From contig CAVQBK010000003.1 of assembly GCA_963710755.1 (NCBI GenBank), positions 576,001 to 640,000 on the forward strand: a stretch of DNA of 64,000 nucleotides, given 5' to 3'. Position numbers and translations under genes: made by a program. Source of the stretch: an uncultured bacterium. GTDB lineage: Bacteria > Oederibacteriota > JAAXVQ01 > JAUVAV01. Positions 19,416-59,575 of the stretch are shown here, piece by piece. A model generated the notes under the pieces. The model searched no databases and was not told the origin of the DNA. It saw only the letters and a program-made list of their open reading frames with translations. Position 1 is the stretch's first letter. Each line of letters opens with the position of its first letter.

Positions 19416-21410
19416 CTAACCCGGCCACACCCTTCGCTTGAGCGGTGTACTGATAAGTTTGTCGAGATTGTCTTTATAGCCTTGAAAGAGATCCCCGGAC
19501 GCTGGTGCCCCTTGTGGTTGAGAAGGGGACGTTGAGTTGTTAGAGGATGGGCGTTGACTTTTGAGGAACAAATTAAAATATTCTTTTCTGCTCACACTAT
19601 GAGCATTGACCATCAAATAGGAAAGATCTCCCAAGTAAACTTTTTTATCCTGGAGATCAGTCGTTTTGACTATAACGAAGTTTTGCCCGCTGACAATGCC
19701 GTAATGCCTTTTGCTCAGCACGCTGACATATTTATCCGCGATATTTCTCAGCATTTCAACAAATTTAATTAATGTTTTTACTTTCTCGTTTAGAAGAACC
19801 GAGGTGGCCGCTTCGGCAACCGCCATTGCAATGGGGGCAAGCAGTTCTAAAAGAGTTTTTGCGAGTTTAAGCTTACCCAAAGCTGAAAGCACATCTTGTA
19901 AAAGACTGACATATTTACTAACAGGTTCCACATTGGCAACCATCGTAAATATCAGGTTAAGCAAATTCGTCCGTTGCATTACGGTGGGGGTATAGCCGGC
20001 TTCGTACCCTTCAAGAAGACGGATATAGGTTTTGAAATTACTGCTCTCCGGGCATCTGCTATAATCGTCAACTTTATCCACTTCAATATTAATACATTTA
20101 ATAGCTTTGGCGCCTATTTGATTTTCGATTGAGGCGGTGGTATTATCATAGTCCGTTATCAATGCTTCAATAACTTCGCAAACCTGCTCCGTCATTGGTC
20201 CTTTAAGCGTTGATTCATTAATATCAATAAATCCCAGTATTTCCTGAATGATATTTTCGATCATTAAATCATCAATAAAATCAAATACCAAAAAGTCATC
20301 TTTTTTAACTACCTTTGGCATGTTGTCGTGTGCCCGATGAGTGACATCGTGTGCTCGCGTATTTCTTATTGCATGGGAAGCAGTAGCCGGATTGGTTATA
20401 TCTTTATAAGTGGTCGCGATGCCCGGTATGCGGTGGTCAATGTTGTTGAGAATTTGTTTGATGAGTGCCTTGATGTTGTTTAGACGGGAAACCAGATGAG
20501 GGATAGGCGTGGTTAACTTACTACCCAGGATGGGGCTTGCGTTGAGATTGTCAAGGATGGTCAGCAAGCCCGCTATCAATTCGTTGGTTTTAATTAATAC
20601 AAAATAGCAGGTTTTATATAATTCTTCCGCAGCTTCAGGCTTCATTTTCCAGTTTTTTTCCAAATTAAATACATCGGTTATATTTGGGCGTTCAATGGCA
20701 TCCAGAGCACCCGCATGATTTTTCAGAACAGATAAAATTTCTCCGATAACTTCCCATATCCGGCCCCCGTCGCGGTTAACAATCTCAAGCATTTGTTTCA
20801 AAGTAAAATCGGCAATTACCCTCTGAGTAAGATCATATTGATTGCGTATGTTAAAAATGACACATTTGGGGTCGAGCTTGGACGTGTTGAGTTGATGTAT
20901 TTTTTTAAAAAACGGGGTTGATAAATAGGTAATGCTTTTAATTTTCCAAGTTTCAGGCCATTTGCTTTGACCGGTGGCAATCCTTTTGGTAAATTCATTA
21001 ATCACATTCCCGCCGTGTGAATGGCCGATGAGATGAAAGCTTACTTTCCATTTGAGATATTTTTGATAAAAGGGCAAATGACCGTCAACTTCATCACAAA
21101 GCCGGTCCGCCAAATAGCGTCCCGCCTGTTCCCGGTCTGATCTGGAGTTGTCGCCGCTCCATCCAAAATAATTGAAAATGTGAATGTTGAAAAAGCGTTG
21201 CTTGATGTCTTGCCAGAAGGCATTGAATCCCTCATCGTCTGCCCAATACCAATCATCCTCGTGGCCGGCTTTGTTAAAGCTGTTTGCCCTTGAAGAAGGG
21301 CTCAAATTTATCGGATCGACAGTTCCGGGCACTAAAATAACGATGTCACAGCGTTTTAAAGCCAATTCATTGCTGCGGGTAATGGGTGTTTGCTCCATGT
21401 TCATCAGCAC
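19416..21410 (-). CDS. Alpha/beta-hydrolase (lipase-like) candidate effector
   Basis: FGWSGDNS, FHLIGHSHGGNV (GxSxG), YLSTPF, late AHS; AT-rich; last gene of the spike/PAAR operon. Confidence 0.65.
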   Translation of the reverse strand: MLMNMEQTPITRSNELALKRCDIVILVPGTVDPINLSPSSRANSFNKAGHEDDWYWADDEGFNAFWQDIKQRFFNIHIFNYFGWSGDNSRSDREQAGRYLADRLCDEVDGHLPFYQKYLKWKVSFHLIGHSHGGNVINEFTKRIATGQSKWPETWKIKSITYLSTPFFKKIHQLNTSKLDPKCVIFNIRNQYDLTQRVIADFTLKQMLEIVNRDGGRIWEVIGEILSVLKNHAGALDAIERPNITDVFNLEKNWKMKPEAAEELYKTCYFVLIKTNELIAGLLTILDNLNASPILGSKLTTPIPHLVSRLNNIKALIKQILNNIDHRIPGIATTYKDITNPATASHAIRNTRAHDVTHRAHDNMPKVVKKDDFLVFDFIDDLMIENIIQEILGFIDINESTLKGPMTEQVCEVIEALITDYDNTTASIENQIGAKAIKCINIEVDKVDDYSRCPESSNFKTYIRLLEGYEAGYTPTVMQRTNLLNLIFTMVANVEPVSKYVSLLQDVLSALGKLKLAKTLLELLAPIAMAVAEAATSVLLNEKVKTLIKFVEMLRNIADKYVSVLSKRHYGIVSGQNFVIVKTTDLQDKKVYLGDLSYLMVNAHSVSRKEYFNLFLKSQRPSSNNSTSPSQPQGAPASGDLFQGYKDNLDKLISTPLKRRVWPG

Positions 21411-21416
21411 CCCTTG

Positions 21417-22097
21417 TTAAGCGCCATATTGGGCCGTCAAGGCGGCCATCGTTGCCGCATCGGCCTTGCCGGTAACAGCCAAATGATGATCTGTTTGATA
21501 TTGTTTCAGCGCATTCGCGGTTTTCGGTCCCAAGGTGCCGTCAACGTTGCCGCAATCATATCCCAGATTGTTCAGCCGCCCTTGAAGGCCGGTGATTTCT
21601 TCAACAGGATCCAAATGTCCGACTTTGATCTCGGTTTGAAAGTCAGGTTCATCGTCGCCGTCTTTTAGCCAGACCTTTAACTGGCCGGACTCTTCCTCCG
21701 TATCAATGGTCTCATGAATCAGACCGGCCTGCAGATGGGATTTGATTTCCGGGCCGTCCTCAATATGCCGCTGATAGGTTTTCATATTTGTTTTAAGCTC
21801 GTATTTAAGCAGGGGGATGGGACTGCCTTCTTCATCCCGCATGGTCATCTGAATTTCATATTTCGGCCGCTGAATCGTAAATGTGTATTTATTTTCCGTA
21901 TGGCAGGTGGTCTCCTGCAGTTTTTTGTCCGGAATAAACAACTGATCACCCGGAAAGAGTAAATCCGGATCAGGCCGCTTTTCTCTAAATGATGCATTCT
22001 GAGGATCATTGTAGATCCGGCGCCAATCGGCTAGGCCATGGGCCTTGGCAATCTTGGCAAGATAGTCGCCTTGTTTGACCGTATACATGGGGGACAC
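21417..22097 (-). CDS. LysM plus C-terminal peptidoglycan-binding (PG_binding_1) protein
   Basis: YTVKQGDYLAKIAKAHG...PGDQLFIP; GLQGRLNNLGYDCGNVDGTLGPKT..ALKQYQ.DHHL.VTG; AGGAG plus GTG start at 22097. Confidence 0.8.
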   Translation of the reverse strand: MSPMYTVKQGDYLAKIAKAHGLADWRRIYNDPQNASFREKRPDPDLLFPGDQLFIPDKKLQETTCHTENKYTFTIQRPKYEIQMTMRDEEGSPIPLLKYELKTNMKTYQRHIEDGPEIKSHLQAGLIHETIDTEEESGQLKVWLKDGDDEPDFQTEIKVGHLDPVEEITGLQGRLNNLGYDCGNVDGTLGPKTANALKQYQTDHHLAVTGKADAATMAALTAQYGA

Positions 22098-22164
22098 GTT
22101 ACTGGCTCCTGAAAAAATGAAATAATTAGCATAACCGGCCATTACAAAACAGCATCGATTTATC

Positions 22165-57527: not shown

Positions 57528-58841
57528 ATGAAACCGATTTTAAATGTGTGTATCATGCTCTTACTGGTGAACCGCATGATGAATGCTGCAGGATGAGCCG
57601 ACAGTACGGGAGCGAGTTCGGCGATGGTACTAAAACAAACCACCAGTCCCCGTGCCGAAGCGATCGCCGCTTATACAGCCCTGTCCGACGATGAGGCCGG
57701 GGCCGCAGGCTGGAACCCGGCCGGTTTATACAACGCTTATCGCCAGGACATGAGTGCCGCCTATTTCAGGGGGATCGTGGATGATGCTCTGGGTTCAATC
57801 ACCTATGCCCAGCCGTATGCTGAAGATTTCTCATTGGGCGCCCAATTGGTGTTCTACGATGGAGGACGCTTTGAGCTCAATACGCTCTCCGGAGAGAGCA
57901 GTCAAGTGAACGCGGAACAAGATCTGCTGGGCGTTTTGACGGGTGCCTATAAGCTGAAATGGTTGGCTCGGGATTGGTTGGTGGGGGTGAACCTGAAACT
58001 GATCTATTCCAGTTTACTGGACTCGGCTTCGGCGTTTTCCATAGGGTTTGATGTGGGTGTGATGTCTGAACTTAAGGAAATTAGCAATGGCTTATTCGCA
58101 GGTTTGGCGGTCAGGAATATGGGTATGCCTATGAAATATCTGGATGTTGCCGATCCCTTGCCCTTTGAATTTCGGGCCGGTCTTGCTTATAAAATATTAA
58201 AAGACAGCCATCATGATTTCTTGGTGGCAGGTGATTCAGCGTTGGGGCCGGATCATAATATCAGAGGATCGGTGGGCGCGGAATATTGGCAAGATAAGAC
58301 CGTGGCCCTGAGGGTAGGCTACAAGCTTGGTTACGACCTGGACTCGTTTACAGCCGGGGTTGGGTTGCGTATTCAAAATTTCCAACTGGATTATGCCTTT
58401 GGGTTGATGTCAGCCTTGAATTCCACGCATAAGCTTAGTCTGACGTACAGTCTGGCCACGGACGAAGTAAGAAAAGCGGACGTCTTGAATGCTTCGCCCG
58501 GCCTTGTGAGCACTCCCAAACCGACACCTAAACCAACACCCAAGCCAACCCCGGTTTCCACGATCGCCGCTCCGAAAGCAGTACCTACGCCGGTTCCTGT
58601 AGTGATGGCGGAGGTATTGGAGGTCGAAAAAACCGGTGATGTGACCAAAACGGTGATTTTGAACATAGGCAAAGACAAAGGCATCAGACCTGGTGCTGAA
58701 GGCACCATTTTAAATGCCAGTGGCATGACAATTGCCAAAATTAAGATTTCAGAAGTTTACCCCAGCCGCAGCCTGGCACGGGTGGTTGAATCCAGCGGGG
58801 ATATTCAAGGTTCCGATAAAGCAGAAATACTGAAGAAATAA
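57528..58841 (+). pseudogene. PorV/PorQ-family barrel (paralog of 32182..33504) with an in-frame TGA in the signal peptide
   Basis: GAGGAG RBS; MKPILNVCIMLLLVNRMMNAAG*ADSTGASSAMVLKQTTSPRAEA; TGA at 57594-57596; remainder intact and colinear with the paralog. Confidence 0.75.
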
Positions 58842-58912
58842 GGTCGAAACACTTCGCTCCACCATATTCACGGAAAACGTCATAATTACAATTGCAGGGA
58901 GGATTTTCACCA

Positions 58913-59575
58913 ATGCAACAGCAGATAGGCGTGATCACAGGAATCATTTTAGTTTCATTGATTGGGTTTCTAACACCGGTAAAAGCGGCGGGCAGCAAAC
59001 AAATAGCAGAAGTGGCAGTCCGCCCGCAGCCGATGATAAACACAATCGTTTACTAGGAGGTAACGCCCGCTGCGGGCACAGCAACAGTCTCGCCTACCGT
59101 TTCCTCCACACCAACTATTACGCCCACTCCTACGGTTACCGCAACCATTACCCCAACATCTACCATCACAACCACCGCAACGATCACGCTTACATTCACT
59201 ATAACCCCCACCTTTACCATATCGCCCACTATTACCGAAACATCCACCATCTCCCCAGCAAGCACCATTTCGTCCGCCAACGCGCCTGCGCAACTCAAAG
59301 CCTTCCCCAGTCGGATTAACCCGGTTCAAGGCGAGAGTGCCGGGATTCGTTGGCATCAACCTGAAGCGGGTCCCACCACCATAGAAATTTATGATATGCG
59401 GGGGGAATTTGTCAAAACCTTGGTGGATCATAAATTCCACGATAGTGGACGTGTGCAGGAAGTGCTTTGGCGCGGTGAAAGTGGGGCCGGGAACACCGTG
59501 GCCAGCGGGATTTATATTGTGTACATCCATGCCCCGCGATATGACGATCATATCAAGGTGGCGGTCATCAAATGA
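58913..59575 (+). pseudogene. Secreted Thr/Pro-rich protein with FlgD-Ig-type CTD, in-frame TAG at codon 48 (absent from ORF track)
   Basis: GGAGG RBS; MQQQIGVITGIILVSLIGFLTPVKA...TIVY*EVTP...(T/P-rich)...AFPSRINP..GE.A.IRW.Q...T.IEIYDMRGEFVKTL...W.G....G.TVASGIYIV.I...IKVAVIK*. Confidence 0.8.

Follow-up and report, generated by a model that had tools for sequence, protein, structure and literature searches.

Where the genes of a contractile injection system (CIS) lie in two divergent arms, the question arises whether both arms serve one machine and, if they do, whether the accessory genes in one of them belong to its regular equipment. We considered this question for positions 19416-59575 of a stretch of 64,000 nucleotides (G000:C3:576001-640000; hereafter the window) from the genome G000 of an uncultured bacterium (3.44 Mb, 98% complete), where families were assigned from the listing of open reading frames (ORFs) together with Pfam and NCBIfam scans of the window ORFs. 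That listing and those scans delineate one CIS extending over two divergent operons: a plus arm (39120-57373) and a minus arm (38718 down to 19416), the latter of which, with gaps of about 3-190 nucleotides or overlaps between the coordinates of its ORFs, reads as one operon. We regard it as very probable that we are dealing with one system and that this system carries a conserved accessory module. The favoured explanation of the whole, in which belief and doubt are in equal measure, is a single chromosomal CIS that belongs to dbeCIS lineage II, has its closest kin in the Streptomyces-type machines (subtype IId), and is organized in two divergent operons.

Chen 2019 names eight core parts of the extracellular CIS (eCIS) superfamily, and the window contains equivalents of the tube (Afp1/5; Phage_T4_gp19 twice, E 5e-37 and 5e-36), of the sheath (Afp2/3/4; Phage_sheath_1 and Phage_sheath_1C in Pfam, both twice), and of Afp7, Afp8, Afp9, Afp11, and Afp16, recognized respectively by CIS_tube with LysM, Phage_GPD with Phage_base_V, GPW_gp25, Baseplate_J, and Pvc16_N. 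Across both facing arms, the Pfam and NCBIfam scans confirmed nearly all the gene calls of the first-pass annotation, which had been made from the sequence alone. That annotation had also seen no capsid, terminase, integrase, or holin/endolysin gene and none of the genes TssJ/K/L/M of type VI secretion (T6SS); and indeed capsid, terminase, integrase, and holin or endolysin families gave no match among the ORFs of the span that were scanned, and a search of the genome (98% complete) for TssC/VipB found none, so that the statement holds to this extent, the families TssJ/K/L/M not having been searched one by one.

The union of the two arms is best seen in the genome G046, which has the sheath closest to that of the window (L020, 72% identical) together with an AAA ATPase that is 62% identical to the window's. 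One 67.7-kb contig of that genome begins, all on one strand, with tube 2, a 755-residue ORF, two eCIS_core genes, Afp7, the hub, two spikes, and a PorV-like gene; continues with gp25, Baseplate_J, PAAR, the gene with LysM and peptidoglycan-binding (PGB) modules, gpI, CIS13, and a small protein with a C-terminal domain (CTD); and ends with FHA, VWA, AAA, DUF1257, DUF2997, the chaperone copy, the pentapeptide gene, and a gene homologous to that of the CxxxCxxC protein. Another contig of G046 carries CTD protein-PorV-CTD protein-Pvc16-sheath 1-tube 1-chaperone. Since the counterparts of the minus-arm genes are there collinear with the structural genes, both arms constitute one system.

Two sets of loci extended this comparison. 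In the sheath-anchored set (80 genome loci, flanks judged within 10 kb), the sheaths that followed the closest one came from many metagenome-assembled genomes of Myxococcota and Planctomycetota (60-67% identical), and then from Chloroflexota and Streptomyces (55-61%); a full-length ATPase of the window type lay within 10 kb of the sheath at 9 of the 80 loci, and FHA together with VWA at 2-3 of them. The AAA-anchored set consisted of 80 metagenome contigs (53-61% identity), fetched by the AAA alone and profiled with jackhmmer for CIS families, among which 21 had CIS structural genes within 10 kb of the AAA (11 of the 30 contigs measuring 12 kb or more). Genes of the module and genes for sheath, tube, hub, and spike are intermingled in L143, L145, L123, L105, L107, L153, L034, and L060: L143 reads DUF1257-gpI-CIS13-FHA-VWA-sheath-tube-Afp7-hub-AAA; L145 reads sheath-tube-Afp7-hub-AAA-spike-DUF2997-chaperone copy; and in L105, L107, and L153 the pentapeptide gene and AAA-DUF1257-DUF2997 stand directly ahead of Pvc16-sheath. 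In L146 and L135, for their part, the order is FHA-VWA-AAA-DUF2997-chaperone copy-pentapeptide-chaperone-DUF6760. On the Treponema succinifaciens plasmid pTRESU01 (L100, 54536-77285) an ATPase with 55% identity has VgrG/Pvc8, gpV, and Fer4_12/Radical_SAM genes around it, no sheath being detected in the 25 kb read.

A FastTree phylogeny of 96 full-length ATPases, from which hits below 350 bits and ORFs shorter than 400 residues had been removed, separated a clade of 45 (support 87), composed of 25 CIS-linked rows including the window, 14 short contigs, and six long CIS-free rows, from a sister clade of 44 (support 95), in which none was CIS-linked, nine had long CIS-free flanks, and 35 were short contigs. 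The ATPases of the window and of G046 are sisters within the CIS-linked clade; seven further CIS-linked rows fall outside both clades, and the tree contains at least three changes between CIS-linked and long CIS-free rows. Pure chance as the cause of the AAA neighbourhood is ruled out by the contig linkage counts together with this clustering. The synteny of the minus-arm genes with CIS loci elsewhere thus came out in favour of linkage, and the earlier claim that both arms are one system is strengthened by the collinearity in G046, by the 21 of 80 AAA contigs having CIS genes, and by the grouping of the CIS-linked ATPases. What did not survive is the description of the accessory arm as peculiar to this locus: the module accompanies this CIS lineage, which is widespread, in other phyla, and is its accessory set.

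Co-occurrence in a class of the Myxococcota (107 genomes; sheath at E<=1e-60, ATPase at E<=1e-120) points in the same direction: the sheath was found in 83 of the 107 genomes and the ATPase in 87, with both in 80, the sheath only in three, the ATPase only in seven, and neither in 17. In that class (genomes G041-G152) the sheath is 66-72% identical to that of the window, which makes it nearly universal there and, for a CIS gene, strikingly well conserved between phyla. Of the six long CIS-free rows of the CIS-linked clade, five come from Myxococcota genomes that carry this CIS elsewhere.

A number of observations must nevertheless be set against the reading that we favour. The co-occurrence just described supports a link between sheath and ATPase without being a test of it, the genomes being kin and their completeness not being given. 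In all five Myxococcota genomes checked, the AAA module is on a different contig from the sheath, in an operon that runs large FHA protein-AAA-DUF1257-DUF2997 and is accompanied by a divergent pentapeptide gene. The AAA-DUF1257-DUF2997 trio occurs with no CIS nearby in 19 of the 30 long AAA-anchored contigs and on a Geminocystis plasmid, and a reported cyanobacterial duf2997-ycf35-fed7 cluster likewise has none; the module can therefore exist independently of a CIS. A Ser/Thr kinase, the partner to be expected for an FHA domain, was not seen among the window ORFs scanned. The window ATPase, which is 25% identical to the Afp15 of pADAP over 207 residues of the AAA core alone, is ruled out as a plain Afp15 orthologue. 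Finally, as regards the mode of action, the fibre-like CIS13 gene, the Tail_P2_I adaptor, and the peptidoglycan-binding modules suit a free particle equally well.

Table 1. Genes and gene remnants of the CIS locus, in window coordinates, with the assignment of each and the match or feature behind it.
Position	Strand	Product	Basis
19416-21410	-	Lipase-like effector candidate, 664 residues	GHSHG serine-hydrolase motif; low-GC stretch
21417-22214	-	LysM + PG_binding_1 protein	Pfam
22165-22818	-	PAAR tip protein with C-terminal extension	Pfam PAAR_motif, E 3.4e-19
22822-23676	-	Spike, gp5/gpV oligonucleotide/oligosaccharide-binding (OB) fold, Gp5 half of split Afp8	Pfam Phage_base_V, E 8.6e-19
23616-24464	-	Possible radical SAM enzyme, 282 residues	CxxxCxxC motif at C31/C35/C38
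24658-32170	-	Two tandem surface proteins, 1225 and 1222 residues, 71% identical	DUF7948 + SBBP + FG-GAP + FlgD_ig
32182-33504	-	PorV/PorQ-family outer-membrane barrel, 440 residues, within the minus operon	NCBIfam PorV_fam, 132 bits (cut-off 90)
33561-34499	-	Pentapeptide-repeat protein, 312 residues	Pfam Pentapeptide_4, Pentapeptide
34503-34922	-	Tail-assembly-chaperone-like copy, 139 residues	Gp41_Mu, E 5e-4, below cut-off
35017-35220	-	DUF2997, 67 residues	Pfam, E 1.9e-15, 56.9 bits (cut-off 24.1)
35211-35615	-	DUF1257 (Ycf35-type)	Pfam, 81 bits (cut-off 22.2); ORF as listed reaches 35702
35618-37156	-	Tandem AAA ATPase, 512 residues	Pfam AAA + AAA_lid_3
37176-38312	-	Membrane VWA protein, 378 residues	Pfam VWA, E 6e-15
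38323-38718	-	FHA-domain protein, 131 residues, N-terminus rich in Cys/His; its gene heads the minus operon	Pfam FHA, E 3e-15
39120-39695	+	Cap/terminator (Pvc16/Afp16-like)	Pfam Pvc16_N
39722-40915	+	Sheath 1, 397 residues	Pfam
41020-41496	+	Tube 1, gp19-type, 158 residues	Pfam
41500-41862	+	Chaperone-like protein, 120 residues	44% identical to the minus-arm copy
41805-42026	+	DUF6760 ORF	Pfam, E 1.9e-17; overlaps the chaperone-like gene in the -1 frame
42299-43816	+	Sheath 2, 505 residues	Pfam
43855-44316	+	Tube 2, gp19-type, 153 residues	Pfam
44323-46737	+	Low-complexity protein, 804 residues	No family in the scans
46734-47432	+	eCIS_core protein, 232 residues	Pfam
47450-49450	+	eCIS_core protein, 666 residues	Pfam; weak RelA/SpoT-like C-terminus
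49700-50326	+	Afp7-like tube initiator, CIS_tube + LysM	Pfam
50364-51449	+	Phage_GPD hub, Gp27 half of Afp8	Pfam
51453-51875	+	gp25	Pfam
51878-54898	+	Baseplate_J, 1006 residues	Pfam
54912-55772	+	PASTA + Tail_P2_I (gpI)	Pfam
55724-57373	+	CIS13-like protein, 549 residues	NCBIfam CIS13_fam, N-terminal, 36 bits (cut-off 370)
57624-58841	+	Second PorV-like barrel, 405 residues	46% identical to 32182-33504; own profile
58913-59572	+	Small secreted-protein remnant	Signal peptide; stop codon in frame near 59054; linker rich in Thr/Pro; C-terminal domain of FlgD_ig type

The genes of the module recur as neighbours in changing combinations (Table 1). Homologues of the FHA protein stand beside VWA inside the CIS loci of G046, L143, L146, L051, and L054, the VWA homologues being found in these and in L135 as well; and in G046, L143, and L051 the FHA-VWA pair follows directly downstream of gpI-CIS13. 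The VWA protein appears to consist of an N-terminal signal or transmembrane segment, the VWA domain, a C-terminal transmembrane segment, and a CxxC...CxxC tail. The DUF1257 and DUF2997 genes adjoin, with an overlap of 10 nucleotides, and the former likely starts at the Met at 35615. The structural model of DUF1257 (pLDDT 92) found nothing at E<=0.001 in Foldseek, and the best match in a wide structural search, to alpha+beta domains of KA1/AMPK type, was a middling one (Z 6.9), no phage-tail-like fold being among the matches. DUF2997, in turn, lies beside the chaperone paralogue at six loci (the window, G046, L123, L135, L145, and L146); the predicted complex between the two products scored 0.00, which gives no answer and is neutral. 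As for the two chaperone paralogues that the first-pass annotation had called, their kinship stands in that the products are 44% identical to each other, and only the minus-arm copy matches Gp41_Mu, weakly and below the cut-off. The pentapeptide gene comes after the chaperone copy in G046, L135, L146, and L123, and is beside the AAA module in L034, L105, L107, and L153.

Regarding the ATPase, the solved structures that match it best in sequence are the D2 domains of p97/CDC48, and its closest homologues are 68-69% identical. A model of residues 1-233 built on 52 sequences (pLDDT 88) matched in Foldseek the AAA domains of i-AAA, p97 N-D1, and FtsH (E about 1e-7), and residues 1-230 contain no P-loop in the sequence. 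From the model and the sequence, then, the layout is that of a degenerate D1 followed by an active, classic AAA D2. Pvc15 is described as having an N-domain, D1, and D2, of which D2 alone works as an ATPase, and as having a role in payload loading. Since the dead-D1/live-D2 layout resembles that of Pvc15, we read the window ATPase as a functional counterpart of Afp15/Pvc15 lacking the N-domain, the sequence common to it and the Afp15 type being the AAA core. By that analogy, the chances that it acts as an Afp15-like motor for assembly and cargo loading are evenly divided.

Among the solved machines the nearest are the cytoplasmic CIS of Streptomyces coelicolor and S. venezuelae (subtype IId; 8bky, 8bl4, 9gtp), which give the best solved match both for the sheath (8bky/9gtp, E 6e-135) and for Baseplate_J (9gtp_1K, E 1.2e-84). 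The window and those machines have in common a cap, gp25, a single Afp11, PAAR, and no annotated tape measure, and the Streptomyces loci L092 and L094 likewise carry the chaperone-like gene. The window differs, however, in having a split Afp8, two sheaths, two tubes, and a Tail_P2_I plus CIS13-like pair; and its ATPase is a 512-residue protein of Ycf46/SpoVK type, whereas the Streptomyces loci encode an AAA of about 746 residues that matches it weakly (84-88 bits). The Streptomyces CIS is reported to be cytoplasmic and to require for firing the membrane protein CisA, whose gene follows closely on those of the baseplate, at which position the window lineage has FHA and VWA, a likeness to CisA that is one of position. 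Relatives in Chloroflexota and Deinococcota are likewise described as intracellular, and the lineage as linked to cell death.

The rule that Chen 2019 outlines for IId comprises an Afp8 in one contiguous ORF, a single Afp11, and the presence of PAAR. In the window there are one Baseplate_J gene and one PAAR gene, whereas the hub and the spike, which are the two halves of Afp8, lie on opposite arms. The split Afp8 is a trait of IIa-c and the single Afp11 one of IIb and IId, Afp12/13-like genes are present, and the presence of PAAR excludes IIb; so by those rules the window fits no subtype cleanly, and we place it by its proximity to solved structures.

The other systems with which the locus invites comparison are more remote. 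The Afp and PVC machines (Serratia pADAP, Photorhabdus) share the structural families and an inactive first plus active second AAA domain, but the window ATPase lacks their N-domain, and the sheath is far more distant from theirs (E 5e-59 to Pvc2); moreover, the pADAP Afp locus has an annotated holin and lysozyme directly upstream, neither of which is next to the window locus. In the T6SS, PpkA carries a periplasmic VWA domain. The TagH/Fha, TagE/PpkA, and TagAB proteins of that system combine FHA, membrane, and pentapeptide proteins with an AAA ATPase, which likeness is one of domain type only; no kinase or phosphatase domain was found among the ORFs scanned, and no TssB/C in the genome. TagH has been reported to promote assembly and bind ClpV, and TagAB to be needed for sheath assembly. 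In the cyanobacterial and plastid Ycf46-Ycf35-DUF2997 group, DUF1257 (ycf35) and DUF2997 stand beside an AAA, labelled 'SpoVK/Ycf46/Vps4 family' by the Joint Genome Institute, with no CIS there, and on the Geminocystis plasmid the AAA-DUF1257-DUF2997 trio is joined by a pentapeptide gene; orthology of plastid ycf46 to the window ATPase is not implied by this.

In the mechanism that we propose, the plus operon would build the cap, sheath, tube, and baseplate and carry the eCIS_core cargo candidates, and the minus operon would supply the spike tip (gpV, PAAR), the proteins associated with that tip, and effector candidates (the LysM-PGB and lipase-like proteins). To these the minus operon would add the module typical of the lineage: FHA, membrane VWA, tandem AAA, DUF1257, DUF2997, the chaperone copy, the pentapeptide protein, and the CxxxCxxC protein. 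The ATPase would do the job of Afp15/Pvc15 in assembly and cargo loading, with DUF1257, DUF2997, and the chaperone copy perhaps acting as adaptors in place of the missing N-domain; and FHA with the membrane VWA might be a membrane adaptor or regulator, in a role comparable to that of Streptomyces CisA or of T6SS TagH/Fha. Firing would then be cell-associated and not from free particles, which mode we put forward tentatively and with somewhat less than even confidence. The proposal of the first-pass annotation that release or anchoring may depend on the envelope and AAA genes stays a conjecture, the simplest view of the AAA being that it is the Afp15-like motor.

What speaks for a membrane-docked mode is the conserved membrane VWA-FHA pair at the CisA position, the failure to find lysis genes, and the cytoplasmic nature of the closest solved relatives. 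These same facts count against a free extracellular CIS, in which the particle would be released and would bind bacteria through its CIS13-like and peptidoglycan-binding modules, with FHA and VWA regulating expression or release and the ATPase still the loader: no holin, endolysin, or other lysis family appeared among the locus ORFs scanned, where the pADAP Afp has its holin and lysozyme, and the conservation of the membrane VWA and FHA pair inside the operons is left unexplained. That alternative has nonetheless its own merits, in that the cap, the Tail_P2_I adaptor, and the CIS13-like gene are all there, a 2026 catalogue describing eCIS fibre classes that rely on Tail_P2_I adaptors; that gpI bears PASTA and a LysM + PG_binding_1 protein adjoins PAAR; that the cargo candidates resemble antibacterial toxins, with a lipase-like motif in one and a weak RelA/SpoT match in another; and that a lipoprotein ORF, possibly an immunity protein, converges on the lipase-like gene. 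We hold release as a free particle to be rather unlikely. Still less probable, to our mind, is a cytoplasmic CIS that a stressed cell fires within itself, as Streptomyces does, with the FHA/VWA/AAA module serving as stress sensor and trigger. The closeness of the sheath and Baseplate_J to the Streptomyces structures would agree with it, as would the reports that the Streptomyces lineage and its Chloroflexota and Deinococcota relatives are cytoplasmic and tied to cell death, and the near-universal occurrence of the sheath type in the Myxococcota class (83 of 107 genomes) looks like a housekeeping, developmental function; but PAAR, the fibre-like gene, and the peptidoglycan-binding modules do not agree with it, the split Afp8 and the two sheaths depart from the published outline of IId, and an immunity lipoprotein, if the ORF is one, would be pointless in a suicide.

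Least likely of all, we deem it quite improbable that the locus represents a hitherto undescribed class of contractile machine, anchored to the cell, in diderms without a T6SS, in which FHA and VWA would dock the baseplate at the inner membrane, a dedicated PorV-like barrel and its CTD proteins would form an outer-membrane station, and AAA-DUF1257-DUF2997 would load the tail or recycle it as ClpV does. Were this true, the cyanobacterial and plastid Ycf46/Ycf35/DUF2997 would have their origin in a module for handling phage-tail-like assemblies, or at least work by the mechanism of such a module.

Whether the PorV-like barrels and the CTD surface proteins belong to the machine at all is a separate matter. 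They could be copies of an abundant genomic cassette that landed at the locus by chance, and in that sense the expected numbers of PorV copies in the CIS regions, about 0.5 in the window and 0.8 in G046, may be compared with the two seen in each; the other 158 loci anchored on sheath or AAA yielded no PorV, the linkage being seen in the window and G046 only; and the PorV of the baseplate operon of G046 groups with other G046 paralogues. Between the two adhesin genes, tblastn revealed a 3' remnant of PorV (28341-28511, minus strand; 57 residues, 79% identical to the PorV C-terminus), which shows a recent tandem duplication of a PorV-adhesin unit followed by the loss of one PorV, and speaks likewise for such copies. 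On the other side, within the minus operon 11-56 nucleotides separate the cassette from its neighbours; the window and G046 both keep PorV among CIS genes despite a rearranged gene order; and in the PorV tree the two window PorVs are sisters, whose nearest cross-genome relative is the G046 PorV beside Pvc16-sheath. Because both genomes are rich in such barrels (42 and about 25 PorV-like ones, respectively), chance adjacency remains plausible, and we give membership of these genes in the machine and their chance arrival about the same weight.

The 42 PorV-like ORFs of G000 mostly adjoin genes ending in a CTD, and thus make up an unusually large family of cargo-plus-barrel cassettes; for at least 26 ORFs of that genome the PorU model gives a match in its CTD portion, and a distant SprA-like ORF of 2142 residues lies at C1:70106-73486. 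The tandem surface proteins had been called CTD adhesins in the first-pass annotation, which their FlgD_ig ends bear out, the Por_Secre_tail match in both being below the cut-off. The fibre that had been placed at 57624-58841 is instead the PorV-like paralogue of Table 1. The adjacent remnant is 43% identical in tblastn to the C-terminal domains of both adhesins, with a weak FlgD_ig match (22.7 bits), and G046 has an intact CTD protein of 204 residues shortly after its CIS13 gene; a 193-residue ORF on the opposite strand (58970-59551, minus) is probably a spurious antisense frame over that remnant.

Within the plus arm, the likelier fibre-like gene is that of the CIS13-like protein, a candidate for a fibre or a peripheral baseplate protein, with homologues after gpI in G046, L051, and L143. 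The 804-residue protein occupies the same position as the 755-residue ORF of G046, to which it showed no significant similarity (best E 0.06), and a role as tape measure is on that account unsupported. The two eCIS_core proteins match their family at E 1.9e-16 and 7.2e-19; the larger of them is a cargo candidate whose RelA_SpoT match (23 bits) remains under the cut-off of 27. Of the 38 loci where both a chaperone-like gene and a DUF6760 ORF were found, 37 have the latter running over the 3' end of the former in one constant relative frame (-1), and in the window a G-run, TTGGGGGAA, directly precedes the chaperone stop, which arrangement looks like a conserved programmed frameshift of the G/GT style in CIS loci.

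With respect to the tip and effector end of the minus arm, the radical SAM enzyme of the first-pass annotation retains its CxxxCxxC motif and the company of its protein language-model neighbours, 93% of which carry Radical_SAM; the Pfam Radical SAM match is sub-threshold (E 0.23, 12 bits, cut-off 29.5), and the assignment is therefore plausible at a level below the family threshold. A homologue of this protein occurs downstream of the accessory module in G046 (E 4e-18) and in no other genome of the comparison. In a similar manner the lipase call keeps its GHSHG motif, the Pfam matches (LIDHydrolase E 0.025, LCAT E 0.11) being below cut-off and the Atlas neighbour clusters weak (PGAP1 in 21% and Lipase_3 in 34% of members), so that a lipase is plausible beneath the family thresholds. 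The LysM-PGB protein has a homologue of 577 residues after PAAR in G046, the only genome with one; the lipase-like, 804-residue, and LysM-PGB proteins had no homologue in the 160 anchored loci. A predicted lipoprotein of 181 residues (18590-19135, plus strand; lipobox LISC) converges on the lipase-like gene from within the same low-GC stretch and could be an immunity protein. The GC content falls to 0.43-0.45 at 19416-22000 and 48000-50000 of the window, as opposed to about 0.55 in the rest of the locus, and these dips coincide exactly with the lipase-like gene and with the C-terminal half of the 666-residue eCIS_core protein, as is expected for swapped-in cargo.

As to regulation, a hybrid response-regulator/histidine kinase, a sigma-54-dependent response regulator, and a sigma-70-family factor are encoded on the plus strand at 7118-11017 of the window, at a distance of 8-12 kb from where the minus arm ends. 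The sigma-54 promoter pattern matched five times versus 8.4 expected, with none in the divergent intergenic region of the CIS, and a generic scan of the locus for promoters and terminators was uninformative. The sequence occurs, in small shares (0.23, 0.09, and 0.05), in three DNA sequencing runs, no RNA run being listed.

The same genome has a second CIS locus, of canonical eCIS type, on the minus strand about 350 kb upstream of the window (G000:C3:189000-225000), with a 653-residue sheath, a tube, a 722-residue AAA ORF, gp25, Baseplate_J-like genes, and an eCIS_core protein. That 722-residue ORF matches the window ATPase weakly and in the AAA core alone; we take it provisionally as a putative member of the Afp15 type. 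In a genome of the same genus, G001, the sheath type of this second locus is present (46% identical to the window sheath), and the window's own sheath type gave no match.

The machine itself is an ordinary one, and what is new is the conserved accessory module together with its link to ycf35-type genes. Literature searches found no paper joining 'contractile injection' with DUF1257, with Ycf46, with FHA plus von Willebrand plus AAA plus sheath, or with PorV, subscription journals and supplements being outside the search; eCIS with 'FHA domain' in full text returned an unrelated paper only, and 'contractile injection' with 'pentapeptide repeat' T6SS papers only. Some of the accessory genes may already stand in the supplementary lists of dbeCIS as unnamed subtype-specific groups. 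Lineage II CIS are the majority of the CIS in genomes and, to our knowledge, almost nothing is known of their assembly, loading, or triggering. Chen 2019 speaks of subtype-specific genes 'with no known functional domains'; here a set of seven genes with recognizable domains (FHA, membrane VWA, AAA, DUF1257, DUF2997, chaperone copy, and pentapeptide) is linked to one CIS lineage in several phyla. That set offers concrete candidates for the loader or motor where the classical Afp15 is missing and for a CisA-like membrane adaptor in Gram-negative hosts, and it ties the long-unexplained ycf35/DUF2997 pair to a testable cellular machine, for which, given the presence of the sheath type in 83 of the 107 genomes of the Myxococcota class, tractable hosts probably exist.

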